Source: Nitrososphaeria archaeon (GTDB lineage: Archaea > Thermoproteota > Nitrososphaeria > Nitrososphaerales > JAAOZN01). Taken from it: a stretch of 64,000 nucleotides of DNA. The stretch covers positions 116,570-180,569 of the forward strand of contig JARVJZ010000006.1 in the NCBI GenBank assembly GCA_029775855.1. Direction: 5' to 3'. Both the position numbers and the translations under genes were made by a program. The notes beneath the pieces were generated by a model. That model made no database searches. It was not told where the DNA came from and saw only the letters and a program-made list of their open reading frames with translations. Position 1 is the stretch's first letter; every line of letters begins with the position of its first letter. Shown in pieces: positions 8,344 through 42,299 of this stretch.

Positions 8344-10875
8344 ATGGTTTCTAATGATTCTGATGTAAAGATATGCTATGTTAGCGGCGGGTTATGTGGT
8401 CATTCACGCTCCGGACCTCCTATGGAGGTTCATGTTAAGGATGGTAAGATCATTAGGGTGCTGCCCTTCCGAGTACCGGATGAAGTTAGACTCTATAAGA
8501 TCAAGACGAGCAAAGGCGAGTTCACAAGACCCAGGAGAACTGTGCCAGCAGCATTTATGCTCGCTCACAAAAAGAGAGTGGATTCGCCGAATAGATTAAA
8601 GTATCCTTTGAAGAGAGTGGATTGGAGCCCTGAAAATAGGAACCCTCAGAATAGGGGTAAGAGTGGATATGTTAGGATAAGCTGGGATGAAGCTATAGAA
8701 ATAATCGTTAACGAGATCAAAAGGATAAAGGAGGTTTACGGCACAACCGAAGCGGTTTTGGTGCAAGCTGATGGGCATGGTCAATCAGGGCTGCTGCACA
8801 CATTCCATTGTTACGGCCACTATCTATTCGACAAGCTAGGAGGCTACACCTCACAAGTGAGGAACCCAGACAGCTGGGAAGGCTACTACTGGGGCGCAAA
8901 GCATGTATGGGGCTTCGATGCTCAAGTAGGTGAGCCGATTCAAGACGCGATCTTTGATGACATCTTAGAGAATTGTGAGATGCTGATATTCAGCGGCTGC
9001 GACCCTGAAACTACGCCAGCAGGCTTCGCTGGGCAGATAGGCACAATAATGTGCAGATGGATAAAACAGGCTGGAATAAAGATCGTTGGTATATCGCCTG
9101 ACTTAAATTACGCTGAAGCCGTGCACGCTGATAAATGGATACCCATTAAACCCAACACAGACGCAGCCTTATACTTGGCGATAGCATACACTTGGATCAA
9201 AGAGGACACATACGACAAGAAGTTTGTGCAGACACACTGCATCGGCTTCGAAGAATTCAAGAAGTATGTTTTAGGTGAAGAAGATGGTGTTCCAAAGACA
9301 CCAGAGTGGGCTGAGAGAATCTGTGGAGTGCCTGTTGAGACGATAAAGGCGCTTGCAAGAGCTTGGGCTAAGAAGAGAACATCCCTAGCAGTATTCTTCG
9401 GAGGACCTAAGATAAGGGGGCCTTATTGTAGTGAGGTTGCGAGGATAGAAGCGATAGTCTTATCTATGCAAGGACTTGGTAAGCCGGGTAGGCAATTCTT
9501 TAGATTTTGGTATAGGCTTGGCTTAGGCTGTAAGAAGCTTTCGCCTATACCTAGATATCCTGAGGTGGATGCTGAGGGGACTCCTCCGAACTTTGCTGAA
9601 CCTTATGTATATATGCCTCCAACCAGCAGATCTTTCGTTATTAAAACGCTGGTGCCAGAAGCTATTCTTAATCCTCCTGTTAGTTGGTATTGTGCCGGCT
9701 CTATTATTTGCCCTCGTGAAGATCAGTTCACCAAATACACCTTCCCACCTTCAAAAGATCATCCTGGTATACATATGATTTGGAACGAGAATGCTTGCTG
9801 GACTGCTTGCTGGAGCAACGGCTATAAGATGATTGAGGCTTTAAGGAGCGAGAAGATAGATTTTGTAGTCGGTATACATCCCTGGTTGGAGAATGATCTG
9901 CTGTATGCTGACCTTATACTTCCAGCCCAGACCATATTTGAGCATGATGACATAGTTCCAGTGAATCATACAGATATTGTAGGTTTGGTTTATCAAGATA
10001 AGTGCATAGAGCCTGTTGGTGAATCTAAGAGCGACTATGAGATACACCGCCTTATAGCTGAGAAACTTGGTATCGGCGATGCGTTTCCACCGCCTGAGGA
10101 GGCGTTAAAGAAAGCCTATGAGAAGACATTGGCAGCTAAGAAGATGAGTTGGGAGGAGTTCAAGAAGAAGAAGGTTGTGATCTACGACTGCCCAACTCCA
10201 GAGGAGTGGGAAGAAATTAAGAGGAAGTATAATGTTAAGCCTGGGTTGACTTGGTTCTATGAAATGCCTGAGGGTAAGGGTTTGGAGACACCAACTGGGA
10301 AACTTGAATTCTACTCTACGGGTCTTGCCGAGCACTTTCCAGACGATAAAGAAAGACCACCTTTACCACGCTATTTGCCTCATGGTGAAGCACATCAAGA
10401 GAGCTTAAGTCATCTTAGGGCTGAGAAGTACCCTCTGCTTCTTATGTCTAACCATCCAAGGTGGAGGCTTCACTCTCAAGGCGATGATATATCTTGGACA
10501 AGAGAGATACCTACCTGCAAAGTTAAAGGGTCTGATGGCTACCTCTATGAGCCTCTTTGGATTCACCCTATAGATGCTGAGAAAAGGGGTATAAAGAGCG
10601 GAGATGTAGTTATGATATTTAACGAGCGCGGCGTGGTTCTTGGAGGCGCATATGTGACTGAGAGGATAATGCCTGGCACGGTATACATGGATCACGGTGC
10701 TAACCATGATCCAATAGAAGATAAAGTAGATAGAGGTGGATGCATAAATCTGATAGCGCCACCGCCTCACGAGAAGAGAATTGCGGGGATGGAGGTTAGG
10801 GTTCCAGAGATGTGCGCAAGCGGCTATTTGGTTGAAGTTCAAAAGTTGGATGAAGATTATCTGGTAGGTGAGTAA
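8344..10875 (+). CDS. Mo-bisPGD oxidoreductase, pyrogallol transhydroxylase large subunit-like
   Basis: RLKYPLKRVDW, RNPQNRGKSGYVRISWDEA, NPDSWEGYYWGAKHVWG (Ser ligand in DSWEG as in AthL), SNHPRWRLHSQ. No N-terminal 4Fe-4S motif, no Tat signal. Confidence 0.85.
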   Translation: MVSNDSDVKICYVSGGLCGHSRSGPPMEVHVKDGKIIRVLPFRVPDEVRLYKIKTSKGEFTRPRRTVPAAFMLAHKKRVDSPNRLKYPLKRVDWSPENRNPQNRGKSGYVRISWDEAIEIIVNEIKRIKEVYGTTEAVLVQADGHGQSGLLHTFHCYGHYLFDKLGGYTSQVRNPDSWEGYYWGAKHVWGFDAQVGEPIQDAIFDDILENCEMLIFSGCDPETTPAGFAGQIGTIMCRWIKQAGIKIVGISPDLNYAEAVHADKWIPIKPNTDAALYLAIAYTWIKEDTYDKKFVQTHCIGFEEFKKYVLGEEDGVPKTPEWAERICGVPVETIKALARAWAKKRTSLAVFFGGPKIRGPYCSEVARIEAIVLSMQGLGKPGRQFFRFWYRLGLGCKKLSPIPRYPEVDAEGTPPNFAEPYVYMPPTSRSFVIKTLVPEAILNPPVSWYCAGSIICPREDQFTKYTFPPSKDHPGIHMIWNENACWTACWSNGYKMIEALRSEKIDFVVGIHPWLENDLLYADLILPAQTIFEHDDIVPVNHTDIVGLVYQDKCIEPVGESKSDYEIHRLIAEKLGIGDAFPPPEEALKKAYEKTLAAKKMSWEEFKKKKVVIYDCPTPEEWEEIKRKYNVKPGLTWFYEMPEGKGLETPTGKLEFYSTGLAEHFPDDKERPPLPRYLPHGEAHQESLSHLRAEKYPLLLMSNHPRWRLHSQGDDISWTREIPTCKVKGSDGYLYEPLWIHPIDAEKRGIKSGDVVMIFNERGVVLGGAYVTERIMPGTVYMDHGANHDPIEDKVDRGGCINLIAPPPHEKRIAGMEVRVPEMCASGYLVEVQKLDEDYLVGE

Positions 10876-11707
10876 GGTGGGTAAGGTTCTCATTATAGAT
10901 GTTTCTGAATGCGTAGGATGCTACTGCTGCCAAATAGTATGTAAAGATGAACATGTTGGAAACGATTGGTCACCTTACGCTAAACCTCAACCCGACACTG
11001 GTCACTTCTGGCTTAAAGTAGATGAAATGGAGCGGGGTACCATACCTAAAGTTAAGGTCACATATACCCCGATCTTATGTATGCACTGCGACAACGCACC
11101 TTGCATACCAGCGTGTCCAGACAACGCCATAGTGAAGAGAGAGGACGGTATAGTGCTCATAAAACCGGAGAAGTGTAGTGGCTGCAAACTCTGCTTAGAC
11201 GCTTGCCCATACGGTGTGATCTACTTTAACAGCGAATTGAACATCGCTCAAAAATGCACTCTCTGTGCACACCTCCTTGATAAAGGCTGGAGTGAGACAA
11301 GGTGTGTAGGCGCTTGCCAACGCGAAGCGCTTATATTAGGAGAGGAGGGTGACCCTAAGATCAAAAGTTTAATTGAGAAGAGTGAGGTGTTCCACCCAGA
11401 GTATGGAACTAAACCTAGGGTCTATTATCTTAACTTGCCCAAGCCGTTTATAGCTGGGACCATAGTAGATTCATCTATTAGGGAATGTGTTGAGGGAGCT
11501 ACGGTGGTTGCCTTGGATCTAGTTGAGGGTGTGAGGCATCAAACGGTTTCAGACGAGTTCGGGGACTTCTGGCTTAGGGATTTAAAGTGGATGCACCGAT
11601 ACCTAATTGAGGTATCTAAGGAAGGCTATGCTTCAAAGAAGGTTTGCGTAGTCCATACTGCTAAGGATGTGAATCTAGGCACGATAACCCTAACTAAACT
11701 CATTTGA
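10868..11707 (+). CDS. transhydroxylase beta-subunit-like Fe-S protein (DmsB fold + C-terminal beta-sandwich)
   Basis: CVGCYCCQIVCKDEHVGNDW, CMHCDNAPC..ACP, CSGCKLCLDACP, KCTLCAHLLD; C-terminal SDEFGDFW domain as in AthM. Confidence 0.85.
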   Translation: MSKVGKVLIIDVSECVGCYCCQIVCKDEHVGNDWSPYAKPQPDTGHFWLKVDEMERGTIPKVKVTYTPILCMHCDNAPCIPACPDNAIVKREDGIVLIKPEKCSGCKLCLDACPYGVIYFNSELNIAQKCTLCAHLLDKGWSETRCVGACQREALILGEEGDPKIKSLIEKSEVFHPEYGTKPRVYYLNLPKPFIAGTIVDSSIRECVEGATVVALDLVEGVRHQTVSDEFGDFWLRDLKWMHRYLIEVSKEGYASKKVCVVHTAKDVNLGTITLTKLI

Positions 11708-11727
11708 CCATCTATAGTGGGATAGGT

Positions 11728-13164
11728 TTGTCTTTCCTATTTAGGAGAAAGACAGTAAGCACAGCTCTGAAGGTTTATCCGCCTAACTTTCAGGTGGAGT
11801 CTGGTAGGAGTGTGACATTAAAGGCTCATCTGAATCCTGAGAAGGCGCCTGTGGAGCGTGTTGAGTGGCGTTTAGAGGGTTTAGGTATACTTTCTGAATC
11901 AAAGGGTCCTTCCACTGTGTATACTGCGCCTAATGTAGAGCAGGAGACTAAAGTTAGGGTTGTAGCGTCTTTCCCTAAGATGAGTGAATACTTAGAGAGC
12001 TCATCTTATGCTGAGGGTGTGATCTTACCTTCTGGCTTGGCTGCTAAGTCTTCTACATTTCTTACAATATCTCCTATAAGTTTTTCGATAAATGCAGGTG
12101 AAAACATTGATTTAACAGCTGTTTTGACAGACATGCAAGGAAATCTCTTAGGCAGTAAAGAGATCGTGTGGTTCATACAACCTCAACTAGGCAAATTAAC
12201 ACCAACATCAAACAACACAGCAGTATACACCGCACCTAAAGTAGATGTTGAAAACCAAATCTTAATCAAAGCAGTCTTTCAAGGCGATGAGCAGCACCTA
12301 CCTTGTGAAGGTGTCTCAATAGGCTTAGTGACGCCACCTACACTTAACGACGAATACATACTCAGCTTTAGTAGGGCAGAGGTATCAAACCTTAAGATCG
12401 ATGGTGGAGCTGAGGTTGATGGTGTAAGGGTTGTTAGGATCAGTGTTGACTTGCTTGAAATATCTGATATGAGGATAAGTAGAGTGAATCTATCCTCGCA
12501 AAGCGGAGTTCTACAGAAGGTTGAGATATACGCAACACGCCTCACAGCGCGCATACCAGATTCAGACAAGGGGTTAGATGTTAAAGGCGAAGATGATATA
12601 CATCTTAACGCTTCTGAAGCCAGCTTAGATAACGGTGTAATCTACTTTGTGAAGATGAGTTGTCTAAGTGGGGAATTAACTCAACCTGAAGTTTTAGGGC
12701 GGTATGCTGGTGGAGATGAGCCATACCTACCTATATTACTTACGACATCAAACATAACTATGGATAGGGGCTTTTCAGTTACAGGACCAGAGACATATGG
12801 CATGTTGGAGAATAAAGCTACTAAGATACTCTGCGGGAGAATCTCTGCATCAAACTTCTTCTTAAAATGCCCTAGCAGATACAGCTTAGATAGAGAGGGA
12901 AATAATCACGAGTTTGTTGAAAAGTGGGCTCTAAACGCTTCATCAGCAGCAATAGAGGATGCTGAGATATATGCAATATACTTCAAGGTAAGAGCCCTAT
13001 TGGTATGGAGAGTTAAGGCTACTGGAGAAGAGTATATCCCAAGCATAATACCAGAAGGCCTCCACAGAGGAGAAAAAGCGCCGATAAACGAGGCGGATGT
13101 GGACATAATCTACCTCAAAGCCACTAAACTAAAGGTCAATAACGCATCATTCACTTTAAAGTAG
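11728..13164 (+). CDS. hypothetical all-beta protein with 2 Ig-like repeats and 2 further repeats
   Basis: Internal duplication (VYTAP.V..E twice; EIYA twice). Likely start TTG 11728 (track start 11704). Confidence 0.6.
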   Translation: MSFLFRRKTVSTALKVYPPNFQVESGRSVTLKAHLNPEKAPVERVEWRLEGLGILSESKGPSTVYTAPNVEQETKVRVVASFPKMSEYLESSSYAEGVILPSGLAAKSSTFLTISPISFSINAGENIDLTAVLTDMQGNLLGSKEIVWFIQPQLGKLTPTSNNTAVYTAPKVDVENQILIKAVFQGDEQHLPCEGVSIGLVTPPTLNDEYILSFSRAEVSNLKIDGGAEVDGVRVVRISVDLLEISDMRISRVNLSSQSGVLQKVEIYATRLTARIPDSDKGLDVKGEDDIHLNASEASLDNGVIYFVKMSCLSGELTQPEVLGRYAGGDEPYLPILLTTSNITMDRGFSVTGPETYGMLENKATKILCGRISASNFFLKCPSRYSLDREGNNHEFVEKWALNASSAAIEDAEIYAIYFKVRALLVWRVKATGEEYIPSIIPEGLHRGEKAPINEADVDIIYLKATKLKVNNASFTLK

Positions 13165-15499
13165 AGCGATTCTTCAACAACCAAAAGACCTTCTCAGGGG
13201 TTATAGGAAGACTGGTAACCCTAACCCCTATAGCATCCTTAACACCATTACCTATAGCTGGCGCTATAGGCAGAACCCCTAGCTCGCCTACCGAGCGTGA
13301 GCCGAAAGGCCCAGGCCCTATGCCGCTCTCTAGAATTGTAGTTTCTATGTTAGGTGTCTCAGATATAGATGCTATTAGGTAATCCATAAAGGTGCCGTTG
13401 AAGATCTGCCCTTCTTCTATAACAAGTTCTTCAAAGAGAGATGTGCTGAAACCCATCCAAGCACCTCCCTTTAGCTGCCCCTCTACTAAAGCGGGGTTGA
13501 CCGCTCTACCTACATCGGCTATAACTTTGATGTTCAAGACCTTTATTGACCCACTTTCCGGGTCTACTGCTAAGTCTACTGCTGCGCAGATAGGCGTGTA
13601 TTCTAGTGCTACTCTAGGCTTGGATGCTTGCCCTGTTTCTGGGTCTATCTCCGCTAAATCTTCGTAGAAGAAGCCTCTGCCTAGCAGTAGGCCTGTTTGC
13701 TCTATGTATGCTCCACCCATGGGTCCTGCTGTGAAGAGGGTTTCGAGGGGTATCTCTTCAGTTGTATTTTCTGACTCTACCTTCAACTTTCCGTTGCTGA
13801 ATGATATTTTATCTTTTGGTTTAGAGAGGATTTTGGAGGCTGCTTCGACTATCTGCCCCTTAAGATCTTTGACTGCTGCCAGCACGGCATTACCTAACTG
13901 GACGAGCTGCCTACTTCCGCTTGAGCCTGGTGATATAGGCGTTAGGAGGGTATCTGACGAGATCACCCTAACTTTGCTGAGTGGTATATTGAACTCTTTA
14001 GCAACGATCTGAGCAAGCCCAGTAAATGTCCCTTGACCTATGTCTGTAGCGCCGATGTAGAGGTCGATGGTTAGATCTTCGTTTAGGCGTATAAGTGCTA
14101 CGCTTGGATAGGTTATGTCACATTGATGCTTCGCTATGGCTACACCCCGACCTACAACCCAACCGTCTATGGGGCTCTTTGGTTTTGGGTTTTCATCTAA
14201 GAGCTTCTTTAATGTGTTTATGCAAAGCCTCATTGTATCGCTGTGTATCTTCTCTCCTATACAGCTCACATCGCTATCCTTTAAGATGTTTTTCAGCCTA
14301 AGTTCTAAGGGGTCTATGTTAAGCCTCTGAGCGATTTCGTTCATCTGAGACTCTATAGCCCAATATATTTGTGTTGAACCGAAGCCTCTGAACGCGCCTC
14401 CTTGAACCTGATTTGTGTAGACTCGATAGATGTCTGCCTTAAAGTTAGGTATATTGTAGACTGAGCTTATGGCGTAGATTGCGTTTCTTACAACTACATT
14501 CCCAGCTACAGAGTATGCTCCGCCGTTATATACTATGCTCATTACTCTACCAATTATCCGCCCATCTTTAGTTACAGCATCACTTAACTTAATCTCTGCC
14601 TGGTGGCGTGTAGTTGTATACATTAGGTCTTCAAGCCTCGACAAAACGAGCTTAACAGGCCTACCCTGAGTCTTTAGGGCTAGGGCTGCTACTATCGGCT
14701 CATACACAGCTGCACCTCGATTACCAAAACCTCCACCAACATGCTTTGGCACTATGACTCTAATCTTCTGCTCCGGAATCTCTAAAGCGTCTGAAATCTC
14801 TTTTCTGGTTCTAAATGGTGTTTGCCCTGAGGTGTAGATTGTAAGGGAACCATCTGGCTCCTGTTTCGCTATAATAGATGTGGGTTCAAGTTGTGCGTGC
14901 TGCACCGCTTGCGTTGTATAAGTGTTAGTGATGATAAAATCTGCTTGTTTGAATGCTTCTTCTACATCGCCAAACCTTATCTTTTGCAAAGCCGATACAT
15001 TCGGTTTATTAGGTGTTAAAGCAACCCTATACAGCTTTGACTTCAGCCGCTTGTAGCGCGATAGATCCTCATGCACAACTGTAGGAGGCTCTTCAAGTAA
15101 GGCCTCTTTGAAGTCAAAGAGAGGTGTAAGAGGTTCATACTCAACATCGACCAACTCACAAGCTGCAAAAGCTATGTCAAAAGACTCAGCAGCTACAGCT
15201 ACTACAGGCTCTCCAATATACCTAACCTTACCCCTTGCAAGTATAGGTGTGTCTAGTAGCCCTCTACCGTGCAGCCCCTTCGGCACATCTTCTGCAGTGA
15301 TTACAGCAACTACGCCGCTAAGTGATGTGGCTCTACTTGTGTCCACCTTTTTTATGAGGGCGTGTGGTAATGGGCTCCTCTTTAAGCACGCATAGAGCAT
15401 ATAAGGTAGGGTGATGTCAGTTGTATACACTGCTTTACCAGTAACCTTCTCTAATCCATATAGATTGGGTGCGCGACTTAAATTGTTCATCTTAAACAT
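13151..15499 (-). CDS. xanthine dehydrogenase family Mo-binding large subunit (stand-alone)
   Basis: KVTGKAVY, GGGFGNR, AFRGFG, IGQG, GSSGSR, VEGQLKGG, VGELG. Confidence 0.9.
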   Translation of the reverse strand: MFKMNNLSRAPNLYGLEKVTGKAVYTTDITLPYMLYACLKRSPLPHALIKKVDTSRATSLSGVVAVITAEDVPKGLHGRGLLDTPILARGKVRYIGEPVVAVAAESFDIAFAACELVDVEYEPLTPLFDFKEALLEEPPTVVHEDLSRYKRLKSKLYRVALTPNKPNVSALQKIRFGDVEEAFKQADFIITNTYTTQAVQHAQLEPTSIIAKQEPDGSLTIYTSGQTPFRTRKEISDALEIPEQKIRVIVPKHVGGGFGNRGAAVYEPIVAALALKTQGRPVKLVLSRLEDLMYTTTRHQAEIKLSDAVTKDGRIIGRVMSIVYNGGAYSVAGNVVVRNAIYAISSVYNIPNFKADIYRVYTNQVQGGAFRGFGSTQIYWAIESQMNEIAQRLNIDPLELRLKNILKDSDVSCIGEKIHSDTMRLCINTLKKLLDENPKPKSPIDGWVVGRGVAIAKHQCDITYPSVALIRLNEDLTIDLYIGATDIGQGTFTGLAQIVAKEFNIPLSKVRVISSDTLLTPISPGSSGSRQLVQLGNAVLAAVKDLKGQIVEAASKILSKPKDKISFSNGKLKVESENTTEEIPLETLFTAGPMGGAYIEQTGLLLGRGFFYEDLAEIDPETGQASKPRVALEYTPICAAVDLAVDPESGSIKVLNIKVIADVGRAVNPALVEGQLKGGAWMGFSTSLFEELVIEEGQIFNGTFMDYLIASISETPNIETTILESGIGPGPFGSRSVGELGVLPIAPAIGNGVKDAIGVRVTSLPITPEKVFWLLKNRSTLK

Positions 15500-15660
15500 G
15501 CTTCACCTATTTTGTGGGTTAACTTTTAATTATACTTTAATAATAGCAACTAAATTAATTACTATTATCGTGTAAACGGTAGAAAGCTAGATGTAAAAGA
15601 ATTATTAGCGCGTTTTAAAAATTGCAATTAAATCCTTATATGAGGAATCGCAATAATAGA

Positions 15661-17370
15661 ATGTTAGAGTTGGAGGTTTATAGCCACGACATATTAATTA
15701 TCGGCGCCGGTCTTGCGGGTCTCAGAGCAGCAATCGCAGCTGCAGAAGTAAGCAAAAACTTGGACATCGCGGTAATCTCAAAGGTGTATCCAATGAGGTC
15801 TCACTCAGTCTGCGCCCAAGGGGGCACAGCAGCGGTAATGAGAGAGGGCGATAGCCACGATCTACACGCTTATGATACCGTCAAAGGAAGTGACTTCTTA
15901 GCAGACCAAGATGTTGTAGAATTCTTTGTAAAAAGAGCAAGTGTAGAACTTGTGAAGCTGGAGCATTGGGGTATGCCTTGGAGCAGAACAGAAGATGGAA
16001 AGATAGCTCAAAGAGCGTTTGGTGGGCATAGCTTCAATAGAACATGTTATTCAGCAGATCTTGTGGGTTTTCAAGAAATGCACACGCTGTATGGGCGCGC
16101 CTTAGCATATGACAACATAGGCTTCTATGACGAATGGTTCGTTACATCTCTGATAGCTGAAGAGGGACAAGCAAAGGGTGTAACAGCTATAGAACTCAAA
16201 ACAGGAAGAATGAGCGCGTTCAGGGCGAAGGCGATAATAATGGCAACTGGAGGAGCCTGCAGAATATACCGTTTCACAACCTATTCACACACAGCCACAG
16301 GCGACGGTATGGCTATAGCCTATAGGGCTGGTGCACCTCTTGAAGATATGGAGTTCGTTCAATTCCATCCAACAGCGCTTGTGCCAAGCGGTGTATTAAT
16401 AACTGAAGCAGCCCGTGGAGAAGGCGGCTACCTCCTAAACAGCAAAAAAGAGCGTTTTATGGAAAAGTATGCAAAGGAGAAGATGGAACTGGCGCCACGC
16501 GACATAGTATCAAGGGCTGAAATGACCGAGATAATGGAGGGAAGAGCATACACTGGACCAGATAGACCCTACATAGCCCTTGATCTAACACACTTAGGCG
16601 AGGAAAAGATAAACGAACGCCTCCCGTTTATACGCGAAGTAGCGCAGAGGTTAATAGGCGTAGACCCGGTTCATGAGCATATACCAGTAGCACCCGCTGC
16701 ACACTACTCTATGGGCGGTATATCTGCGAACATAAGGACAGCAACGCCTTTGCCTCATCTATTTGCAGCTGGCGAATGTGCTTGCCTTAGCCTACACGGC
16801 GCCAACAGGTTGGGCTCTAACTCTACAGCGGAATGTCTGGTTTTTGGTGCTGTAGCTGGTGAAGAAGCAGCAAAACTTGCGCTTTCCTCAACGCTCCCAA
16901 GTCTACCTAGCGATAAGCTTAGAGAAGAAGAGAAGCGTGTCTTTGACCAAGTTTTGGGAAATGAAGGCGGTGAGAGGATCTCAGAGATTAGAAGACAAAT
17001 GATGAATATTATGGATGATAAAGTATGGATCTTTAGAGACGAGCATGGATTAGCAGAAGCGGTTAAGGCGATAAGAGCCTTAAAGGAGAAGTTTAGAAGG
17101 GCTAAAGTTGAAGACACTTCAAGAGTGTTTAATTTAGGTTTGGTAAACGCTCTTGAACTGGACTTTATGCTTGATTTAGCCGAGGTTACAGCCTTCTCAG
17201 CGTTAAACAGAAGAGAGTCAAGAGGGGCACATTCAAGAATAGATTACCCCAAGCGTAATGATACGGATTGGCTTAAACACACCTTAGCCTACCACACACC
17301 AGACGGACCGAAATTAGAATATATGCCAGTAACCATAACGAAGTGGAAACCTGTCGAAAGAAAGTATTGA
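15661..17370 (+). CDS. sdhA: succinate dehydrogenase/fumarate reductase flavoprotein subunit
   Basis: [16 protein letters not shown] (covalent-FAD His), [35 protein letters not shown]. Start uncertain (15622/15661/15670). Confidence 0.93.
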
Positions 17371-34622: not shown

Positions 34623-35834
34623 ATGCCATCTAAAGAACTTCGTAAGAAGGAAATAGGCGTGTCTACAGCTGTCGCGGTTGGCGCAATAATAATCATCGCA
34701 ATTATAGCTGGTGTTGCAGGCTACTTTGGTGGTGCTGGGCAAGTAGTAACAACAACCGTAACTGAGCGTCAAACAACAACAGCAACAGTAACACAGACAG
34801 CAGCAGCCCAAACCATAACACAAACAGTAACACAAACGGTAGCTGGGGAAGGAGTATTAGGCAGAAAGTTGAAGGTAGCGGTAATAGTGCCTGGCAGAGC
34901 GAACGACTACGGTTGGAACCAGGAGGGTGTAGAGGGATTAAGGAAAGTTGCATCAAAGTTTGGTGCAGAATTCTCATTTAGTGAGGGACTAGGTTACGGT
35001 GAACCACCACTTCGGGCTATGGAAGATTACATTAGAAAGGGATATGATCTGGTAATAGGCCACGCTGGCGGCTATAGAGAGTTCGTCCTAGAGGCAGCTA
35101 GAACTGGTAAAATAGGCACAAGTAAGGTTCTGATCGTAAGCGAGGCTAAAGAGGGTGAGGAGGAGAAGGATGTAGTTCCAGGCAAGGTTGGAACCTACTC
35201 ATTCGTAGTCTGGGCCGCTTCATACCCAGCGGGCTACCTCGCTGGTCTAATGACTAAATCTAACGTTGTAGGTATAGTTCAATCTGTTGAGACGGATATC
35301 AACTGGATCAGGCAGAGCGCAGCATTTGCACAAGGACTTAAAGCAGCTAATCCTAAAGCTAAGCTACTCTTTACAGTTGTAGGCTCATATGAAGACCCGG
35401 CGAAAGGGAAAGAGTTTACCGCTGCGCAGATCGGGCTTGGTGCTGATGTGATCTTTGGGCAAGGTGATGGCACATCTTTCGGCATAATGGATGCCTGCAG
35501 GGATGCTGGAGTTTGGTTTATCGATGTGATAGGTGATAAGAGGGCTATAGATGAGAAAGGCATACTATTAACTTCTGTACTCTGGGACTTCTCGAAGGCA
35601 TATGAGCAAGCTCTGATAGACATTTATAATGGTGAATTCGGTAAACATAACTATTATATGTCGCATGCGAACCAAGCAATCTACTTACTCACCCTAAACC
35701 CGAAGGTACCAGCTGATATAGCTACAAAGGTAAGTGAAGTTAGCAGGAAGATTCAAGCTGGAGAGATCAAAGTGAAGATTCCAGATAACATCGAGGATCT
35801 ACACGCCATATTCAGGGAACTCGGCTACGAGTAG
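34623..35834 (+). CDS. BMP family ABC transporter substrate-binding protein
   Basis: N-terminal TM anchor and Thr-rich linker; DYGWNQ, GYLAGLMTKSNVVG, GSYEDPAKGKE, GADVI. Confidence 0.9.
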   Translation: MPSKELRKKEIGVSTAVAVGAIIIIAIIAGVAGYFGGAGQVVTTTVTERQTTTATVTQTAAAQTITQTVTQTVAGEGVLGRKLKVAVIVPGRANDYGWNQEGVEGLRKVASKFGAEFSFSEGLGYGEPPLRAMEDYIRKGYDLVIGHAGGYREFVLEAARTGKIGTSKVLIVSEAKEGEEEKDVVPGKVGTYSFVVWAASYPAGYLAGLMTKSNVVGIVQSVETDINWIRQSAAFAQGLKAANPKAKLLFTVVGSYEDPAKGKEFTAAQIGLGADVIFGQGDGTSFGIMDACRDAGVWFIDVIGDKRAIDEKGILLTSVLWDFSKAYEQALIDIYNGEFGKHNYYMSHANQAIYLLTLNPKVPADIATKVSEVSRKIQAGEIKVKIPDNIEDLHAIFRELGYE

Positions 35835-35859
35835 CCGAGCCCATATTTTTCTTTTTCAA

Positions 35860-37008
35860 GTGTTGATTAGGTGTTTGAGTAATATGGTTAAAGTTTATAA
35901 TGAAGATAAAAAAGATTTAAGCAGATTGAGTAAGGAAGGTTTAGCCATAGAGGCGAAGGTAAGCCCTATTAGTGTATTGGTATCTTCAATTAAGCCTGCT
36001 CTTTCAACGATTATAGGTATAGTAGGTGGTATGGCCGCTGGCTCCATAGTGCTTTGGTTAACAGGTTTTGATCCGGGATATGTTTACTATACGATCTTTG
36101 CGCAAGCTTGGGGCACGTCCTTCGGTGTAGGTAAGATGTCTATTACGATGATGCCTCTTCTGATAATAGGTGTTGGGCTGCTCTTTTGCTTTAAAGCTGG
36201 AACTTGGAATATAGGTGCACAAGGGCAGATGATCTTAGGCGCACTTTTCGCTAATGTGGCTGGGTATGCTTTTGGGCCTCTGCCGGCGCCTATTCTTATA
36301 CCTATTGTGCTTATCGCAAGCATAGTTGGTGGTTTACTCTGGATTCTTCCAGCTGCTGTTATGAAGGCTAAGTGGGGGATAAATGAAGTCGTTACTACTA
36401 TGCTTTTCAACTTCTTAGGGATATTTTTGCTGATGTATCTTGTTAAGAGCCCACTTAGATATCCAAAGGAATATCATCCAATCACACAGCCAATCTACCC
36501 TTCAGCGCAGCTCCCTATGCTCCCTGGTGTTCCTATTCACAGTGGTCTAATTATCGGGTTAGCGCTTGCCATCTTCACATATATCTTCTTTACAAAGACA
36601 ACATTAGGCTTTCAATTCAGAATAATAGGGAGCAACTTGAAAGCTGCCAGATACGCTGGGCTACGCATACCTTGGCTAATCTTTTACTCCTTAATCATTA
36701 GCGGTGCAATATGTGGGTTAGCTGGTGGGGTTCAGCTCTCCGGTACTATGCGCTTTCTCGACCCAGACTGGGTCCCTTGGTACGGTTTTCAAGCGGTACC
36801 TCTAGTCTTCTTAGCTAGGTTAAACGCGATAGCACTAATACCCTTCTCATTCTTCTTCGCGTCCTTACTCATAGGAGGTGATCTAATGCACAGGATAGTT
36901 GGTCTACCAGTATTCTTTGTGGATGTAATCTTCGGCTTGATGCTCATACTGTTCGCTGCTTCTGAATCTATCAAATACGTCAGGCTAAAGAAGCGGGGTG
37001 CAAAGTGA
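35860..37008 (+). CDS. ABC transporter permease (nucleoside/BMP-type)
   Basis: WNIGAQGQ, INEVVTT.L.N, ISGAICGLAG. Start may be downstream. Confidence 0.9.
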   Translation: MLIRCLSNMVKVYNEDKKDLSRLSKEGLAIEAKVSPISVLVSSIKPALSTIIGIVGGMAAGSIVLWLTGFDPGYVYYTIFAQAWGTSFGVGKMSITMMPLLIIGVGLLFCFKAGTWNIGAQGQMILGALFANVAGYAFGPLPAPILIPIVLIASIVGGLLWILPAAVMKAKWGINEVVTTMLFNFLGIFLLMYLVKSPLRYPKEYHPITQPIYPSAQLPMLPGVPIHSGLIIGLALAIFTYIFFTKTTLGFQFRIIGSNLKAARYAGLRIPWLIFYSLIISGAICGLAGGVQLSGTMRFLDPDWVPWYGFQAVPLVFLARLNAIALIPFSFFFASLLIGGDLMHRIVGLPVFFVDVIFGLMLILFAASESIKYVRLKKRGAK

Positions 37009-37958
37009 TCCCTATGATAGACCCTATCTTAACGATGTTCATAACATTCATATTAGCCAGCATGCTTAGAGTAGCAACGCCAATCTTACTTGCAGCTTTA
37101 GGCGAATGCTATGTGGAGAATGCTGGGATACTTAACCTAGGTATAGAGGGGATAATGCTCTTCTCAGCCTTTACGAGCTTTTTAGGGGCAGTAGCAACCA
37201 ACTCGAGTCTCATAGGGCTGGGGGTGGGTTTATGCACCGGTCTGGTCTTAGCGTTGATCTTAGCGGTTCTCTATGTTACTCTTAAATCAGACCAGATCGT
37301 TGTGGGCATAGCCTTCTCTTTATCAGCGATAGGTTTCACAAGCCTATACTTCAGAATACTCTATGGAACTACACTACCTAGGCTCCCAGTTAAAGAGTGG
37401 ATTGTGACTGTTCCTCAACTTGCAGATGTACCGATTATAGGTAGAGTGTTCTTTAATCAACCATTCATGGTTTATGTGAGCATCGCTTTGGTCCCCATCT
37501 TCTACTATATTCTCTACAGAACACGCTTTGGGCTAAAGGTCAGAACACTTGGTGAAAACCCAGTAGTTGCAGACACAGCAGGGGTCAACGTCTTCCTCTA
37601 CCGCTACATAGTTATGCTCATAGGCGGAATGCTCGCTGGCGTAGGTGGGGCATACTTATCGCTCTACCAAGTTTCACTCTTCCAAGACAACATGATCCAA
37701 GGCCGAGGATATGTAGCTATAGCGATAGTTATGTTCGCCAGATGGAACCCTCTAAAGATCTTAGCTGGAGCGCTGCTCTACGGTGGAGCAGAAGCCTTTG
37801 CGGGTGCAATACAAGCACTAGGATACCTACGCACAATACCTGCAGAAATAGTTCTTATGCTGCCTTATCTAATAACTATTGTTGGGCTTGTTGTGCTTGC
37901 TCGGCGTGCACGCTTCCCACCAGCATTTGCAAGACCATATAGGAGGGAGATGAGATGA
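37005..37958 (+). CDS. ABC transporter permease (nucleoside/BMP-type)
   Basis: ATPILLAALGE, GILNLGIEG, GENP..ADTAGVNV, GRGYVAIA. Confidence 0.92.
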   Translation: MIPMIDPILTMFITFILASMLRVATPILLAALGECYVENAGILNLGIEGIMLFSAFTSFLGAVATNSSLIGLGVGLCTGLVLALILAVLYVTLKSDQIVVGIAFSLSAIGFTSLYFRILYGTTLPRLPVKEWIVTVPQLADVPIIGRVFFNQPFMVYVSIALVPIFYYILYRTRFGLKVRTLGENPVVADTAGVNVFLYRYIVMLIGGMLAGVGGAYLSLYQVSLFQDNMIQGRGYVAIAIVMFARWNPLKILAGALLYGGAEAFAGAIQALGYLRTIPAEIVLMLPYLITIVGLVVLARRARFPPAFARPYRREMR

Positions 37959-39478
37959 GTAAAGAAGACTATGCTGTGCAGATGAGAGGCATAACAAAAA
38001 CCTTCCCAGGGGTAGTGGCGAACAAAAATGTTGATTTAGATTTAAGGAAGGGTGAAATACACGGGCTTTTAGGTGAAAACGGTGCAGGCAAAACAACTCT
38101 AATGAACATACTATCCGGATTCTACAAACCAGATGAAGGAGAGATATATGTTGAAGGAAAGCGTGTTAAGATGCATTCACCTAAAGACGCGCTTAAGCTC
38201 GGTATAGGCATGGTTTACCAACACTTTACACTGGTTCCAGAATTCAAGGTAGTCGAAAACATCATGCTCGGTATGGATGTAGTAGGGAAGAAGCTGAGCC
38301 TAAAAGCAACAGCTAACCTAATAGAAGAGCAGGCTAAACAACTTGGCTTTACAGTAGACCCTTGGAGCAAAGTAGCAGATCTATCCTTAGGCGAGCAGCA
38401 GAAAGTAGAGATTCTCAAAGTTCTCCTACGCGGAGCCAAAGTAATTATATTAGACGAACCGACCTCGGTATTAGCACCGGTAGAAATAGCGGGCTTATTC
38501 AACGTGTTAAAGCAGCTCGCATCTCAAGGCAAATCGATTGTTTTTATCACACATAAGCTTAATGAAGTTATGGAGATCTGCGACAGAATAACCGTGCTCA
38601 GAAGTGGAATGAAGATAGGAACGTTAAACAGAAGTGAAATTGCATCAACATTAGATATCATAAAGATGATGTTTGGCGTAGAGGCTGAACCGGCACTTGC
38701 AGCAGAAGTTCCAAAAGAACTAGGTAAAGAAGTTCTAAAAGTAGAGAATCTCGTTGTTGAAAGTGACAGAGGAATAGACGCCGTCAAAGGAGTCTCATTC
38801 ACAATAAGGGAAGGGGAGATTTTAGGGCTAGCAGGTATAGATGGAAATGGTCAAAAAGAACTCGCTGAAGCTCTGTCTAGAATAAGAAGCGTAAAGTCTG
38901 GAAAAATATACTTCAAAGGGGAAGACGTCACAGCTCTTAGCCCAGCAGATCTTTACTTAAAGGGAGTCACATACATAACCGATGACAGAATAAGTGAGGG
39001 GTTAATCCAAGACTTTACTTTAGCCGAGAACGTGGTGCTAAAAGACTTTAGAAAAAATGGTGTAAAACGTGGTTTATTTATCGACTGGAAGAAGATCACA
39101 GAAAACGGGCGGAAACTCGCCGAAGAATACGAGTTAGCCGCAGCAAAGCCAAACTCATTAGTCCAAACACTTTCAGGTGGCACACAGCAGAAGCTACTTG
39201 TAGCTAGGGAGATAGGCGGCGACGCATCACTTATAATTGCCAATCAACCAACACACGGAGTTGACGCAAAGACTACAGCATACATTAGAAAGAAGCTGAT
39301 AGAAAGCGCCGCTAAAGGCGCTGCTGTGCTCCTAATCTCTAACGATTTAGATGAGATATTCAGCTGCAGCAACACAATAGCGGTAATATACGAAGGCAGG
39401 ATTCTTGGCATCTTAGATAGACAAAGCGCCACAAGAGAAAATGTAGCTTACCTTATGATAGGTGTAAAGAAGGATTAG
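37955..39478 (+). CDS. ABC transporter ATP-binding protein (double NBD)
   Basis: GENGAGKTT, LDEPT, LSGGTQQK, QPTHGVD. Confidence 0.95.
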   Translation: MSKEDYAVQMRGITKTFPGVVANKNVDLDLRKGEIHGLLGENGAGKTTLMNILSGFYKPDEGEIYVEGKRVKMHSPKDALKLGIGMVYQHFTLVPEFKVVENIMLGMDVVGKKLSLKATANLIEEQAKQLGFTVDPWSKVADLSLGEQQKVEILKVLLRGAKVIILDEPTSVLAPVEIAGLFNVLKQLASQGKSIVFITHKLNEVMEICDRITVLRSGMKIGTLNRSEIASTLDIIKMMFGVEAEPALAAEVPKELGKEVLKVENLVVESDRGIDAVKGVSFTIREGEILGLAGIDGNGQKELAEALSRIRSVKSGKIYFKGEDVTALSPADLYLKGVTYITDDRISEGLIQDFTLAENVVLKDFRKNGVKRGLFIDWKKITENGRKLAEEYELAAAKPNSLVQTLSGGTQQKLLVAREIGGDASLIIANQPTHGVDAKTTAYIRKKLIESAAKGAAVLLISNDLDEIFSCSNTIAVIYEGRILGILDRQSATRENVAYLMIGVKKD

Positions 39479-39519: not shown

Positions 39520-40548
39520 TTGGAGAGTATGAAAGCAGCGGTATTTAGAGGGGTAAACAACCTCTCGGTAGAAGATAGACCTATACCAGAAATCAGAAGC
39601 CCTAACGATGTTCTACTTGAAATATACGGCTGCGGCATCTGCGGCACAGATCCAAAAATAATAGCTGGGGAGCACCCCGTGGTGCCCGGAATAATACTTG
39701 GCCATGAATATGCTGGCACGGTTGTAAAAGTAGGAGAGAAGGTGAAGAACGTTAAACCTGGGGACCGTGTAACCGTTGATGTTGATATTAAATGCGGCGA
39801 ATGCTACTACTGCAAGACTGGGAGAGAGAACCTATGCCAGAACATCAAGACCCTAGGTGAGCATCTTGATGGGGGATATGCAAAATATAATGTTTCACCG
39901 GCGCAAACACTTTACAAGATCCCAGATGATATGTCATTTGAAGCTGGTATAATGGCTGGACCAATATCTTGCGTGGTTAACGGTGTGAGGAGGGCTCAGA
40001 TTAAGCCTGGAGACACTGTGGTTATTATTGGCGCAGGACCTATGGGGCTGCTCTACCTTCAACTGCTTAAAGACAGTGAAGCAAGCAAGGTTATTGTCTG
40101 CGAGATTAAAGATAAGCGCATCGAAGATGCGAAGCGCTTCGGCGCTAAAATAGTAATAGACCCCAAGAAAGAAGAGCCGGCTGAAGTTGTTAAGAGTTTG
40201 ACTGATGGTAGAGGGGCTGATGTAGTTATAGAAGCCGCAGGCAACCCAACAGCAACTAGACAAGCGCTCTCTATGGTAGGCAGAGGAGGTAGGATAGTGC
40301 TATTCGGCATAAACCCTCAAGGCCAAGAGGTTCCGATACAACCATTTGACATAACCTTTAGGCAGATAGAGATAGTGGGTAGCTTCATCTCAAACTACAC
40401 CTTCCACGCAGCGGTGGACCTCTTAAGCGCAGGTAAATTTGATACACATAATTTCATTACGCACCGAGTCAAAATTACAGATATCCACAGAGGTATGGAT
40501 CTAATGCGTAGAGGTGAATGCATAAAAGTCATGGTGATACCAGAGTAG
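39520..40548 (+). CDS. zinc-dependent alcohol dehydrogenase (MDR family)
   Basis: GICGTD, GHE, CGECYYC...C, GAGPMG. Confidence 0.92.
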   Translation: MESMKAAVFRGVNNLSVEDRPIPEIRSPNDVLLEIYGCGICGTDPKIIAGEHPVVPGIILGHEYAGTVVKVGEKVKNVKPGDRVTVDVDIKCGECYYCKTGRENLCQNIKTLGEHLDGGYAKYNVSPAQTLYKIPDDMSFEAGIMAGPISCVVNGVRRAQIKPGDTVVIIGAGPMGLLYLQLLKDSEASKVIVCEIKDKRIEDAKRFGAKIVIDPKKEEPAEVVKSLTDGRGADVVIEAAGNPTATRQALSMVGRGGRIVLFGINPQGQEVPIQPFDITFRQIEIVGSFISNYTFHAAVDLLSAGKFDTHNFITHRVKITDIHRGMDLMRRGECIKVMVIPE

Positions 40549-40810: not shown

Positions 40811-41692
40811 TTGATAAGCAAACTCGTGGTAAAGTCGACAGTTAAAGAACTTTTGAGGATAGCTTCTGTGGAGCTGCCCAATGATGTGAAGATGGCTTTA
40901 AGAGCTGCTTACGAGCGTGAGGTTGATGCTGTGCCTAAGATGCAGCTTAAAGCTATACTCGACAACATCGATCTTGCTGAAAAGACGGGTATTCCTATGT
41001 GTCAGGATACTGGCATTCATGTGGTGTATGTTAAGTGGGGTGATGTTGATGTTGAGGATTTGGAGGAAGCAGTAAGGGAGGGGGTTGCGGAGGCTACATC
41101 TTCTATACCTCTTCGCCCCAACGCTGTGCATCCCCTAACTCGAAAGAACCCTGGCACGAATGTCGGTTTGCATATGCCCTATATACACATCGATAAAACA
41201 AAGGAGAAGTTCTTGGAGATCACGGTTATGCCTAAGGGGTTTGGTGCTGAAAATATGAGTGCTTTAGCGATGCTAACCCCAGCACATGGACTCAAAGGTG
41301 TTAAGGAGTTTATTCTGCAGACGGTTGTGAAGGCTGGCGGCAACCCTTGCCCACCTGGCATACTTGGTATTGGGATTGGTGGGACGGCTGATGTCGCTAT
41401 GAAGCTCGCTAAGGAGGCTCTGCTTCGTCCACTTGGCTCTAGAAATCCTGATCCAGAGGTGGCTAAGTTGGAGGAGGAACTTCTTGAAGCGTTGAACGGC
41501 TTAGGCATAGGTCCTATGGGTTTAGGTGGTAAGACCACTTTGCTTGGTGTTAACATCGAGGTAGCCTACACTCATACGGCTGGGTTGCCTGTTGCTGTGA
41601 ACTATCAGTGTTGGGCTGCTAGGCGTGCTTCTGCTAGAATATACCCTGATGGTAGGGTGGAGTATACTTCACATAGGAAGAAGGAGGTGTGA
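40811..41692 (+). CDS. class I fumarate hydratase/tartrate dehydratase alpha subunit
   Basis: PMCQDTG, PKGFGAEN, NPCPP, GIGPMGLGG, CWAARR. Confidence 0.92.
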   Translation: MISKLVVKSTVKELLRIASVELPNDVKMALRAAYEREVDAVPKMQLKAILDNIDLAEKTGIPMCQDTGIHVVYVKWGDVDVEDLEEAVREGVAEATSSIPLRPNAVHPLTRKNPGTNVGLHMPYIHIDKTKEKFLEITVMPKGFGAENMSALAMLTPAHGLKGVKEFILQTVVKAGGNPCPPGILGIGIGGTADVAMKLAKEALLRPLGSRNPDPEVAKLEEELLEALNGLGIGPMGLGGKTTLLGVNIEVAYTHTAGLPVAVNYQCWAARRASARIYPDGRVEYTSHRKKEV

Positions 41693-41699
41693 AGATAGT

Positions 41700-42299
41700 T
41701 TGGCTGAGTATAGGCTTACTACTCCGCTTGACGATGATGTTGTTAGAAGTCTGAGTATAGGGGATATAGTTTACCTTACAGGCATAATCTACACTGCACG
41801 AGACGAAGCGCATATACATATCTTAGAAGATTTAAGGCGTGGTCGTGAACTTAAGATATCTTTGAGGGGTGCGGTGATCTACCACTGTGGCCCTATTCTC
41901 AAGCGTGTAAATGGGGGGTGGAGGGTGTTAGCTGCTGGGCCGACGACGAGTTCAAGAATGAATCCGCTTGAACCAGAGTTTATCGAGAAGACCGGCGTGA
42001 AAGGTGTGATAGGGAAGGGTGGTATGTCTAAGCCTGTAGTTGAAGCTTTAGCTAAGCACGGGGCGGTTTACTTATCTTTCACAGGCGGTGCTGCTGTGCT
42101 AGCTGCAAACGGGATAAAGGCGGTTAAAGGTGTTTACTATGAGGAGCTCGGTATGGCTGAAGCTGTTTGGGTGTTTGAAGTTAAAGACTTTGGTCCACTG
42201 ATAGTTGGGATAGATGCGAAGGGTAACTCAATATTTGAGAAGGTGGGCTTGGAGGTTCAGCAGAACATTCAAAGAGTTAGGGAGAAGCTGAGCATCTAG
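41700..42299 (+). CDS. class I fumarate hydratase beta subunit
   Basis: TARDEAH, YHCGP, AGPTTSSRM, IGKGG, LGMAEA. TTG 41700 likely start. Confidence 0.92.
   Translation: MAEYRLTTPLDDDVVRSLSIGDIVYLTGIIYTARDEAHIHILEDLRRGRELKISLRGAVIYHCGPILKRVNGGWRVLAAGPTTSSRMNPLEPEFIEKTGVKGVIGKGGMSKPVVEALAKHGAVYLSFTGGAAVLAANGIKAVKGVYYEELGMAEAVWVFEVKDFGPLIVGIDAKGNSIFEKVGLEVQQNIQRVREKLSI

Follow-up and report, generated by a model that had tools for sequence, protein, structure and literature searches.

Genes and extent of the island

We analyzed 64,000 nucleotides of DNA (the window; contig JARVJZ010000006.1 of assembly GCA_029775855.1, or G000:C6:116570-180569, where G000 is the host genome) from a Nitrososphaerales archaeon of hot springs. 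The host genome is 1.5 Mb in 6 contigs and is 98% complete, and near-identical DNA was found in sequencing runs that are labelled as hot-springs metagenome. The window contains an island of genes, among them a relative of pyridoxamine-pyruvate transaminase (PPAT), a lactonase of the metallo-beta-lactamase (MBL) fold, and an ABC importer of the BMP family, that may serve the import, salvage and catabolism of vitamin B6 vitamers. We hold this reading tentatively and give it a real chance of being right, if a little short of an even one. Our confidence is moderate for the link to B6 and low for the steps after pyridoxal.

An earlier note on this DNA had listed the gene families between 8344 and 42299 and had read the whole block of about 34 kb as an O2-independent route of B6 breakdown. 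Our Pfam scan, which covered 50 open reading frames (ORFs) between 332 and 60709 (most ORFs under 90 amino acids and 60700-64000 were left out), found every family on that list in its place, as well as a ParB-like gene within the block that the list lacked (Table 1). The interpretation held up in part: the B6 markers and their co-occurrence in other genomes stand, while the assignment of an FHMPC dehydrogenase (FHMPC-DH), the inclusion of succinate dehydrogenase (Sdh), fumarase and a transhydroxylase-like pair, and the use of F420 do not.

We dropped the idea that the 34-kb block is a single unit after comparing DNA and proteins with sister genomes. G003, from the same genus, carries 18145-40542 collinearly on two contigs, with the TrmB and ParB-like genes in the same order, and G001 carries the island in fragments. 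In G002 (same genus, 98% complete), the island was not found by DNA or protein search: the best match to the PPAT-like protein is 37% identical, and no close homologue of the MBL protein or of the island's NicX/M29-like metalloenzyme was found. One contig of G002 (C112) has the order ThiD-ThiN, SdhA, SdhB, CCG protein, PdxT, PdxS, and another (C67) has an AOR (aldehyde:ferredoxin oxidoreductase) paralogue, FumA, FumB and NAD kinase. Since G002 keeps Sdh and fumarase without the island, these are conserved flanks, and the note's proposal that C4 products are channelled into them is not supported. Also, since PdxS and PdxT lie next to Sdh in G002, the island occupies the place of the sister genome's pyridoxal phosphate (PLP) synthase.

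The functional unit is therefore about 21.6 kb, 18973-40548, plus an outlying gene for a large subunit of the xanthine dehydrogenase (XDH) family, XDH-L1, for which we found no DNA match in G001-G003. SdhAB, fumarase and the transhydroxylase-like pair lie outside the island.

Table 1. Features of the 34-kb block and what each assignment is based on (positions in the window)
Feature	Position	Strand	Basis and remarks
Mo-bisPGD alpha, AhtL-like domain	8344-10875		Pfam
Mo-bisPGD beta, Fer4_11 + CarboxypepD_reg	10868-11707		Pfam
XDH large subunit L1 (second XDH-family large subunit)	13151-15499	-	Pfam; SdhAB lies between L1 and the island
SdhA and SdhB	15622-18890		Pfam; flank
MBL-fold lactonase, 4-pyridoxolactonase-like	18973-19722	+	Pfam, PDB, NCBIfam
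MoaD/ThiS-like ORF, 82 aa, C-terminal Gly-Gly	19770-20018	+	C-terminal motif
AOR	20081-21955	+	Pfam AFOR_N + AFOR_C
3HCDH-family NAD enzyme, FHMPC-DH-like or HBD-like	21976-22923	-	Pfam, PDB, NCBIfam
TrmB-family regulator	22968-23861	+	Pfam
ParB-like helix-turn-helix protein	23915-24799	+	Pfam
LLM1, luciferase-like oxidoreductase, FGD-family-like below cut-offs	24796-25785	-	Pfam, NCBIfam
XDH-family Mo hydroxylase: FAD (M), 2Fe-2S (S) and Mo (L2) subunits	25862-29549	+	Pfam, NCBIfam
LLM2, luciferase-like oxidoreductase, candidate ring reductase	29550-30542	+	Pfam, NCBIfam TIGR03619
NicX/M29-superfamily metalloenzyme	30566-31579	-	Pfam, profile search, AF2 + Foldseek
Cupin, single-domain (Cupin_2)	31614-31979	-	Pfam
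CMD, carboxymuconolactone-decarboxylase family	32002-32442	-	Pfam
PPAT-like class-V transaminase	32560-33681	+	Pfam, PDB, NCBIfam, tree
Amidohydro_2: candidate lactonase or non-oxidative hydroxy-aromatic-acid decarboxylase	33684-34424	-	Pfam, AF2 + Foldseek
BMP-family ABC importer: binding protein, two permeases, double ATPase	34623-39478	+	Pfam, NCBIfam
Zn-ADH (zinc-dependent alcohol dehydrogenase), candidate for pyridoxine to pyridoxal	39520-40548	+	Pfam
Fumarase alpha/beta	40811-42299		Pfam; flank

Proteins related to enzymes of B6 metabolism

The closest PDB match of the PPAT-like protein is 2z9u (245.8 bits), which is the PPAT of Mesorhizobium loti according to a table in a review; the next is AGXT (188.8 bits). 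Among NCBIfam models, the best is NF046070, the PPAT equivalog (358 bits), followed by BhcA (219 bits). The earlier description of this aminotransferase as PPAT-like was thus confirmed in both databases, with a score below the model's cut-off. The alignment with 2z9u has no gaps. Glu68, Thr146, Asp171, Lys197 and Arg345 are invariant in all 16 aligned members of the clade, and both Lys197 and the motif QGE(G/P)V, which contains Glu68, are shared with the rhizobial PPAT named by PGAP. At the site of this motif, six aligned AGXT-like sequences, including the host's own paralogue, have SG(S/T)GG or SRSG. We take Lys197 to be the Schiff-base lysine and Glu68 to replace the Ser/Thr-Gly motif that holds the phosphate of the cofactor in ordinary class-V enzymes. 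If so, B6 would be the substrate of this enzyme and not its cofactor. In a tree of 29 rows (a small sampling, with the M. loti sequence itself left out), the PPAT-like clade groups with rhizobial PPAT and apart from AGXT-like paralogues (SH-aLRT 100). Many relatives are 53-66% identical, with labels that include Bathyarchaeia, Nitrososphaerota, Aerophobetes, Spirochaetota and Acidiferrales, and some of them carry the JGI name pyridoxamine-pyruvate transaminase.

The MBL protein is most similar in the PDB to 4-pyridoxolactonase (3aj3, 151.7 bits; next AiiA, 110.9 bits) and in NCBIfam to NF047925 (223 bits; next AiiA, 142 bits), and its zinc motif HxHxDH reads HLHFDH, aligned to HFHFDH in 4-pyridoxolactonase. 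Here too the note's family call agrees with the top match in both databases, below the cut-off. Orthologues of the lactonase were found in G001, G003 and G041 only. Pyridoxolactonase-like homologues at 54-66% identity bear Caldarchaeum and Bathyarchaeia labels. A 2026 preprint states that pyridoxolactonase homologues do not exist in archaea.

The binding protein of the importer (34623-35834) has a single NCBIfam match, NF047927 or "putative B6 ABC transporter" (260 bits, E = 2e-77). These comparisons tie the aminotransferase, the MBL protein and the BMP binding protein to B6 more closely than membership of a broad family would.

The assignment of the 3HCDH protein to FHMPC-DH fared less well, as models of 3-hydroxybutyryl-CoA dehydrogenase (HBD) rank ahead of it. 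In the PDB, HBD (6aa8) scores 210 bits and FHMPC-DH (4om8) 203 bits; in NCBIfam, NF042925 (FHMPC_DH) is fourth at 239 bits with a cut-off of 500, and HBD reaches 266 bits. A 3HCDH protein near a PPAT homologue in Haematobacter is 29% identical and was of no help for this assignment.

Conservation of the neighborhood

We scanned one genome per GTDB species for the PPAT-like gene and found 33 loci, of which we used the 29 close ones. These are from 27 genomes in five lineages (Bathyarchaeia, Nitrososphaerales, Spirochaetota, Aerophobetes and Acidiferrales). Nine of the 29 loci are shorter than 9 kb, so the following counts, from clustering of ORFs, are lower bounds. The commonest neighbor is the cupin (13 of 29 loci), followed by the XDH large subunit (10), the NicX/M29-like protein and LLM2 (9 each), AOR (8, at 39-46% identity), Amidohydro_2 (7), the Bmp binding protein (6), 3HCDH (5), CMD (3 by clustering, 5 by tblastn), and the MBL protein (1). 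None of the island's families lies beside any of the three distant AGXT-type homologues that we retrieved with the same extent of flanking DNA (L038-L040). As these families recur by the PPAT-like gene across phyla and are absent from the distant AGXT-type loci, the clustering exceeds chance. The co-occurrence that the earlier note had suggested looking for was found: the gene set recurs in other metagenome-assembled genomes (MAGs) of TACK archaea and of anaerobe type.

Orthologues of both XDH large subunits adjoin PPAT-like genes in other genomes: XDH-L2 at 67-71% identity in L014, L017 and L036, and XDH-L1 at 47-48% in L017, L021, L022, L024 and L031. An orthologue of the Zn-ADH (72%) abuts the PPAT-like gene in the Acidiferrales locus L017, and an orthologue of LLM1 (67%) is in the Pelearchaeum locus L012. 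Of 30 carrier genomes, 18 have an orthologue of the NicX/M29-like protein, and the non-carrier G002 has none; homologues also occur in MAGs labelled Anaerolineales, Thermodesulfobacteriota and Bathyarchaeia. Three Spirochaetota loci (L025, L028 and L034) have the PPAT-like gene and the Bmp ABC transporter and nothing more of the island. This is also true of a complete Spirochaetota chromosome (G054), where the NicX/M29-like orthologue is absent.

Several families recur in the other loci and are absent from the window: APC permeases, an ECF module, aldehyde dehydrogenase, UbiD decarboxylase, a dihydroorotate dehydrogenase (DHODH)-like reductase with Fer4, FAD-linked oxidases, SCP2, and ferredoxin. 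A protein of 343 amino acids with no Pfam match (L016:8934-9965, minus strand) recurs in 6 of the 29 loci and is also absent from the window. The Mo-bisPGD pair, SdhAB and TrmB were never found beside the PPAT-like gene in the 29 other loci.

When 18900-38899 is divided into 30 bins, contigs from two RNA libraries of one study cover 27 and 20 of them, with an identity that is mostly at least 95%. Such contigs cannot show transcription, strand or level, and uncovered bins mean nothing, so this coverage is consistent with transcription of the island without proving it.

Candidates for the downstream chemistry

The NicX/M29-like protein had no PDB match in a single-sequence search. A profile of nine members of its family matches NicX (7cn3, E = 9.2e-6), and with a model from AlphaFold2 (AF2; pLDDT 83.5), NicX takes Foldseek ranks 1-3 (TM-score 0.74-0.75, E = 3e-20), versus TM-scores of 0.64-0.67 for the M29 aminopeptidases PepS, AmpS and AmpT. 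The Pfam family M29 (PF02073) is matched at 39 bits (cut-off 27), and residues 144-331 cover only the C-terminal half of that profile; the protein has 337 amino acids, versus about 410 for a full-length two-domain M29 aminopeptidase. According to PMC7910607, the Fe(II) ligands of NicX are His265, Ser302, His318 and Asp320, and all four are essential by mutagenesis. The corresponding residues are Glu266, Ala292, His310 and Asp312 in all nine aligned members of the NicX/M29-like family, whereas a rhizobial NicX retains His/Ser/His/Asp. In addition, Glu197 and His290 are invariant in the NicX/M29-like members, and rhizobial NicX lacks both. The resulting Glu/Glu/His/His/Asp pattern presumably resembles a dinuclear aminopeptidase site, and for this reason we infer that the protein is a hydrolase. 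If our reading holds, then these proteins would form a new subfamily of the NicX/M29 fold, probably a hydrolytic one.

The AF2 model of the Amidohydro_2 protein (pLDDT 93.2) has LigI-type lactonases, LigW, gamma-resorcylate decarboxylase and IDCase as Foldseek neighbors (TM-score 0.67-0.77), and this search does not distinguish a lactonase from a decarboxylase. A hydroxypyridine-carboxylate or lactone intermediate would be compatible with either of these activities, as far as the model goes.

LLM2 belongs to TIGR03619, an "F420-dependent LLM" subfamily of NCBIfam (200 bits, above the cut-off of 166.9). However, neither CofD nor CofH was found in the host genome, which is 98% complete, so we reject F420 dependence, and with it the F420-dependent ring reduction of the earlier note, for this host.

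The 82-amino-acid ORF upstream of AOR ends in Gly-Gly, which we take to be a feature of MoaD; this fits the note's label for it. A query with the cupin in the Atlas returned only generic cupins. The host's 1.5-Mb genome contains seven AOR, five XDH-large-subunit and five DMSO-reductase-family paralogues.

B6 supply and oxygen in the host

PdxS and PdxJ were not found in the host genome. Its only strong Phos_pyr_kin protein is the ThiD-ThiN fusion, which is hence the only candidate for a pyridoxal kinase; we rejected a second, weak Phos_pyr_kin match, which is NAD(P)H-hydrate dehydratase. Within the genus, the carriers G000, G001 and G003 have no PdxS, and the non-carrier G002 has PdxS and PdxT. 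Of 41 relatives, 25 have PdxS; of the 27 outside carriers, none has PdxS and 2 have PdxJ. To put these numbers in context, PdxS passed the Pfam cut-off in just 20 of 101 sampled Bathyarchaeia (genomes were requested with a completeness of at least 80%; in the other 81 it did not pass), and the PPAT-like gene was found in 0 of 100 other sampled Bathyarchaeia. As the absence of PdxS is the norm in that group, the anticorrelation weighs little there, and about one evolutionary event would account for what is seen in Nitrososphaerales. The carriers, like most Bathyarchaeia, are without known PLP synthesis, and few genomes have the island; how Bathyarchaeia in general obtain PLP is not explained by the PPAT-like gene. 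Since the host has neither PdxS nor PdxJ, import and the conversion of pyridoxamine to pyridoxal would probably also supply PLP.

COX1 was not found in the host genome, which does encode a cytochrome bd oxidase (C1:268337-270872). AmoA had no match in the host, but it had none in 14 control genomes either, so this is uninformative. An O2-independent route is plausible but unproven.

Comparison with known pathways

In pathway I of M. loti, B6 is degraded by PPAT, pyridoxal 4-dehydrogenase, 4-pyridoxolactonase, 4-pyridoxate dehydrogenase, FHMPC-DH, HMPDC decarboxylase, MHPC oxygenase and AAMS hydrolase. To our knowledge, the only bacteria in which B6 catabolism has been described are aerobes, and they use O2 both for entry into the pathway and for opening the ring. 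The island and pathway I have the PPAT-family transaminase and the MBL lactonase as closest relatives, possibly also an FHMPC-DH-like enzyme, and would share the intermediates pyridoxamine, pyridoxal and 4-pyridoxate. Unlike pathway I, the window shows no GMC oxidase, short-chain dehydrogenase (SDR), class II aldolase-type decarboxylase, flavin ring oxygenase (FAD_binding_3) or alpha/beta hydrolase among its 50 scanned ORFs, as the note had seen for the known O2-dependent enzymes. Instead, in an archaeal host, the island has AOR, XDH-family Mo enzymes, LLMs, Amidohydro_2, CMD, a cupin and the NicX/M29-like protein.

A tblastn search against plasmids identified a cluster with a PPAT named by PGAP on a plasmid of Rhizobium daejeonense (NZ_CP048425, 118872-149927; L062). 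This cluster also encodes a BMP ABC transporter, an MBL protein of the AHL-lactonase family, a CMD, a "2,5-dihydroxypyridine 5,6-dioxygenase" and two amidases, along with an HpaB-like monooxygenase and flavin reductase, a GMC oxidoreductase, SDRs and a GntR regulator. Identity to the window is 37.5% for PPAT, 36-41% for the BMP ABC transporter, 31% for MBL and 26.5% for the NicX-family protein; CMD is shared as well. The plasmid has oxygenase-type enzymes and a true NicX (His/Ser/His/Asp), whereas the Mo/W enzymes of the window are of the XDH and AOR families and its NicX-like protein has Glu/Ala/His/Asp. In the window, the same core is combined with Mo/W enzymes where the plasmid has oxygenases. 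B6-type clusters built on a NicX-family enzyme thus exist in aerobes. No MHPC oxygenase is annotated in the R. daejeonense cluster. It may encode an undescribed aerobic B6 route via a 2,5-dihydroxypyridine-type intermediate.

Nicotinate and picolinate are degraded via 2,5-dihydroxypyridine (the maleamate pathways) with the Mo hydroxylases NicAB and PicA, the Amidohydro_2 decarboxylase PicC and the dioxygenases NicX and PicD; O2 is needed for NicC/PicB and NicX, and there is no transaminase, AOR or LLM. The island shares with these pathways an XDH-family Mo hydroxylase and enzymes of the Amidohydro_2 and NicX folds, and B6 hydroxylated at C6 would similarly be a derivative of 2,5-dihydroxypyridine. 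It differs in having a transaminase, AOR and LLM and in not conserving the iron ligands of NicX. The anaerobic fermentation of nicotinate by Eubacterium barkeri uses a Mo hydroxylase, 6-hydroxynicotinate reductase and enamidase. It would have in common with our proposal the hydroxylation with water, the reduction of the ring and the hydrolytic opening of a cyclic amide. The families proposed for reduction and hydrolysis in the island are different (LLM or DHODH-like, NicX/M29-like, and Amidohydro_2).

Flanking genes

The block is flanked in the window by genes of housekeeping type, namely those for thiamine and for aspartyl-tRNA synthetase, DNA ligase, ABCE1, Cdc48 and GatDE. Directly upstream of the block, a thiamine block (4604-8307) encodes a helix-turn-helix (HTH) regulator with a ThiN domain, a CytX-like hydroxymethylpyrimidine permease and the ThiD-ThiN fusion (6937-8307). 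Downstream, an NAD kinase (42305-43303, minus strand) has a MarR-type HTH fused at its C terminus.

SdhA and SdhB of the window are 84% and 65% identical to their counterparts in G002. SdhB (17343-18890) is a fusion of 515 amino acids whose C-terminal half is QmoC-like, and the G002 counterpart (L066:2213-4052) consists of an SdhB of 320 amino acids and a separate CCG-domain protein of 291 amino acids.

As for the transhydroxylase-like pair of the earlier note, the pair is present and the best solved match of its alpha subunit is pyrogallol hydroxytransferase (4v4c, 465 bits; next DMSO reductase, 239 bits), but its membership in the island did not hold: it was found in 0 of 29 other loci, and related copies with 64-72% DNA identity lie elsewhere in sister genomes (G002:C4, G002:C74, G003:C32 and G003:C17). 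In the window, this locus (8344-13164) has an Ig-like domain (CarboxypepD_reg) in the beta subunit and a third ORF, also Ig-like, of 486 amino acids.

A proposed route for B6 vitamers

We propose that the BMP-type transporter imports a B6 vitamer and that the PPAT-family transaminase interconverts pyridoxamine and pyridoxal, as homology suggests for both. These two steps would probably double as PLP salvage in an auxotrophic host. AOR could oxidize pyridoxal directly to 4-pyridoxate with ferredoxin, which would explain why most carriers need no lactonase; the MBL protein, by its homology, would hydrolyze 4-pyridoxolactone. The Zn-ADH, 3HCDH or LLM1 might oxidize the hydroxymethyl and formyl side chains. 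XDH-family Mo hydroxylases might then place a water-derived hydroxyl on C6; this is the only free ring carbon adjacent to the nitrogen, and with the 3-hydroxyl it would give a ring of the 2,5-dihydroxypyridine type. Amidohydro_2 and CMD would be candidates for the removal of carboxyl groups (UbiD in the bacteria), flavin-dependent LLM2 for the reduction of the pyridone (a DHODH-like enzyme in the bacteria), and the NicX/M29-like protein, with its hydrolase-type metal ligands, for opening or deacylating the ring.

Several observations weigh against this proposal. We inferred all of the steps after pyridoxal from family chemistry alone. The four scores against B6 models are all below the equivalog cut-offs of NCBI (358 of 600 for NF046070, 223 of 325 for NF047925, 260 of 400 for NF047927, and 239 of 500 for NF042925), and NF047927 is itself labelled "putative". 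Arg336 of rhizobial PPAT, which we take to be its second carboxylate-binding arginine, is Tyr336 in the window's protein and Tyr, Phe or Val in the other aligned members of the clade, with Arg in two alphaproteobacterial sequences. Homologues of about 40% identity in Haloferax (pHV4) and Peptoclostridium sit in unrelated contexts that are not of B6 type. The lactonase lies beside the PPAT-like gene in just 1 of 29 outside loci, and G041 is the one genome of the 27 outside carriers with a close homologue. The scores of the 3HCDH protein do not set it apart from HBD. The nearest solved fold of the ring-opening candidate is that of an O2-dependent dioxygenase, NicX, and the host, which has a cytochrome bd oxidase, may be exposed to O2. 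We found no operator motif that links the divergent promoters (among 12 intergenic regions, one AT-rich 9-mer occurs in 3) and no dedicated PdxK or PdxY in the host. Finally, B6 breakdown by a host without PLP synthesis would be odd, and B6 is a trace compound, which favors salvage or another substrate.

If the island is for salvage only, then the transporter and the PPAT-like enzyme, perhaps with the Zn-ADH, AOR and lactonase, would convert to pyridoxal the pyridoxamine, pyridoxine or oxidized vitamers that are imported, independently of O2 and in place of the O2-dependent PdxH. The products of the XDH, NicX-like, LLM, cupin and decarboxylase genes would then have a different heterocycle as substrate, or would serve only to clear damaged vitamers. 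This would fit the lack of detectable PdxS and PdxJ in the host and of PdxS in all 27 outside carriers, the PdxS/PdxT genes beside Sdh at the island's place in G002, the reduced Spirochaetota loci and G054, and the ECF-type transporters, which are typical of vitamins, that neighbor the PPAT-like gene in 6 loci. However, catabolic-type genes are its most frequent neighbors across phyla and the same families are in the aerobic Rhizobium cluster, no dedicated pyridoxal kinase was found, and the lack of PdxS weighs little in Bathyarchaeia, most of which are without it. We consider salvage alone unlikely. We also find it improbable that the island is for catabolism of another N-heterocycle (a hydroxypyridine, a picolinate- or nicotinate-type acid, or an aminomethyl-heteroaromatic), with the PPAT-like and BMP proteins acting on a compound other than B6. 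Three independent proteins favor B6-specific models over nucleoside, AGXT or AHL models, the Glu68 motif in place of Ser/Thr-Gly presumably points to a vitamer as the substrate, and the island lies at the place of PdxS/PdxT in the sister genome. These points have to be set against the sub-cut-off scores and the unconserved Arg336, the tendency of BMP proteins to bind nucleosides (Pfam PnrA-like), the thiamine-pyrimidine genes directly upstream, and the combination of XDH, an Amidohydro_2 decarboxylase and a NicX-type enzyme, which matches the 2,5-dihydroxypyridine logic of picolinate and nicotinate.

A B6 catabolism that still requires O2, in which the NicX/M29-like protein is a ring-cleaving dioxygenase for low O2 and only the hydroxylation has become O2-independent, seems quite improbable to us. 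In its favor, NicX is the top Foldseek match, two of the iron ligands of NicX (His318 and Asp320) align with His310 and Asp312, a cytochrome bd oxidase is encoded by the host, and the Rhizobium cluster has a true NicX; but the essential His265 and Ser302 are replaced in nine of nine members, the invariant Glu197 and His290 are missing from rhizobial NicX, Pfam places the catalytic half in M29, and homologues are found in Anaerolineales, Thermodesulfobacteriota and Bathyarchaeia MAGs. That unrelated genes for redox enzymes and hydrolases have come together by chance, in a genome with many Mo/W enzymes, is largely refuted, and we give it hardly any weight: although the host has many AOR and XDH paralogues and the 34-kb block did include unrelated flanks, the same neighbors occur in five lineages, and G003 has the whole island in collinear order and none was found in G002. 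We set aside a de novo B6 biosynthetic route of a new kind as very improbable as well, because there is an importer in every locus and XDH hydroxylases are catabolic.

Implications

A more specific proposal, which we regard as a long shot, is that the host obtains PLP from the island alone and that the island has taken over the function of PdxS/PdxT at the same locus. In addition to pyridoxamine, it would reclaim from the environment oxidized B6 catabolites that are otherwise dead ends: the lactonase would open 4-pyridoxolactone, the tungsten/molybdenum enzyme AOR with reduced ferredoxin would reduce 4-pyridoxate to pyridoxal, and a branch with the Mo hydroxylase, reductase and NicX-like protein would destroy the surplus without O2. 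If this is true, then vitamin salvage would have a reductive route and the NicX superfamily a new branch of hydrolases, and archaea and bacteria of anoxic habitats would have exchanged them.

In the literature that we searched (on B6 degradation, on archaeal or anaerobic B6 enzymes, and on Bathyarchaeia and B6), no such cluster is described. If our broader proposal of import, salvage and catabolism of B6 is correct, then we would learn from the island how microbes of anoxic sediments and hot springs recycle or consume B6, and B6-auxotrophic archaea would have an O2-independent route from pyridoxamine to pyridoxal.

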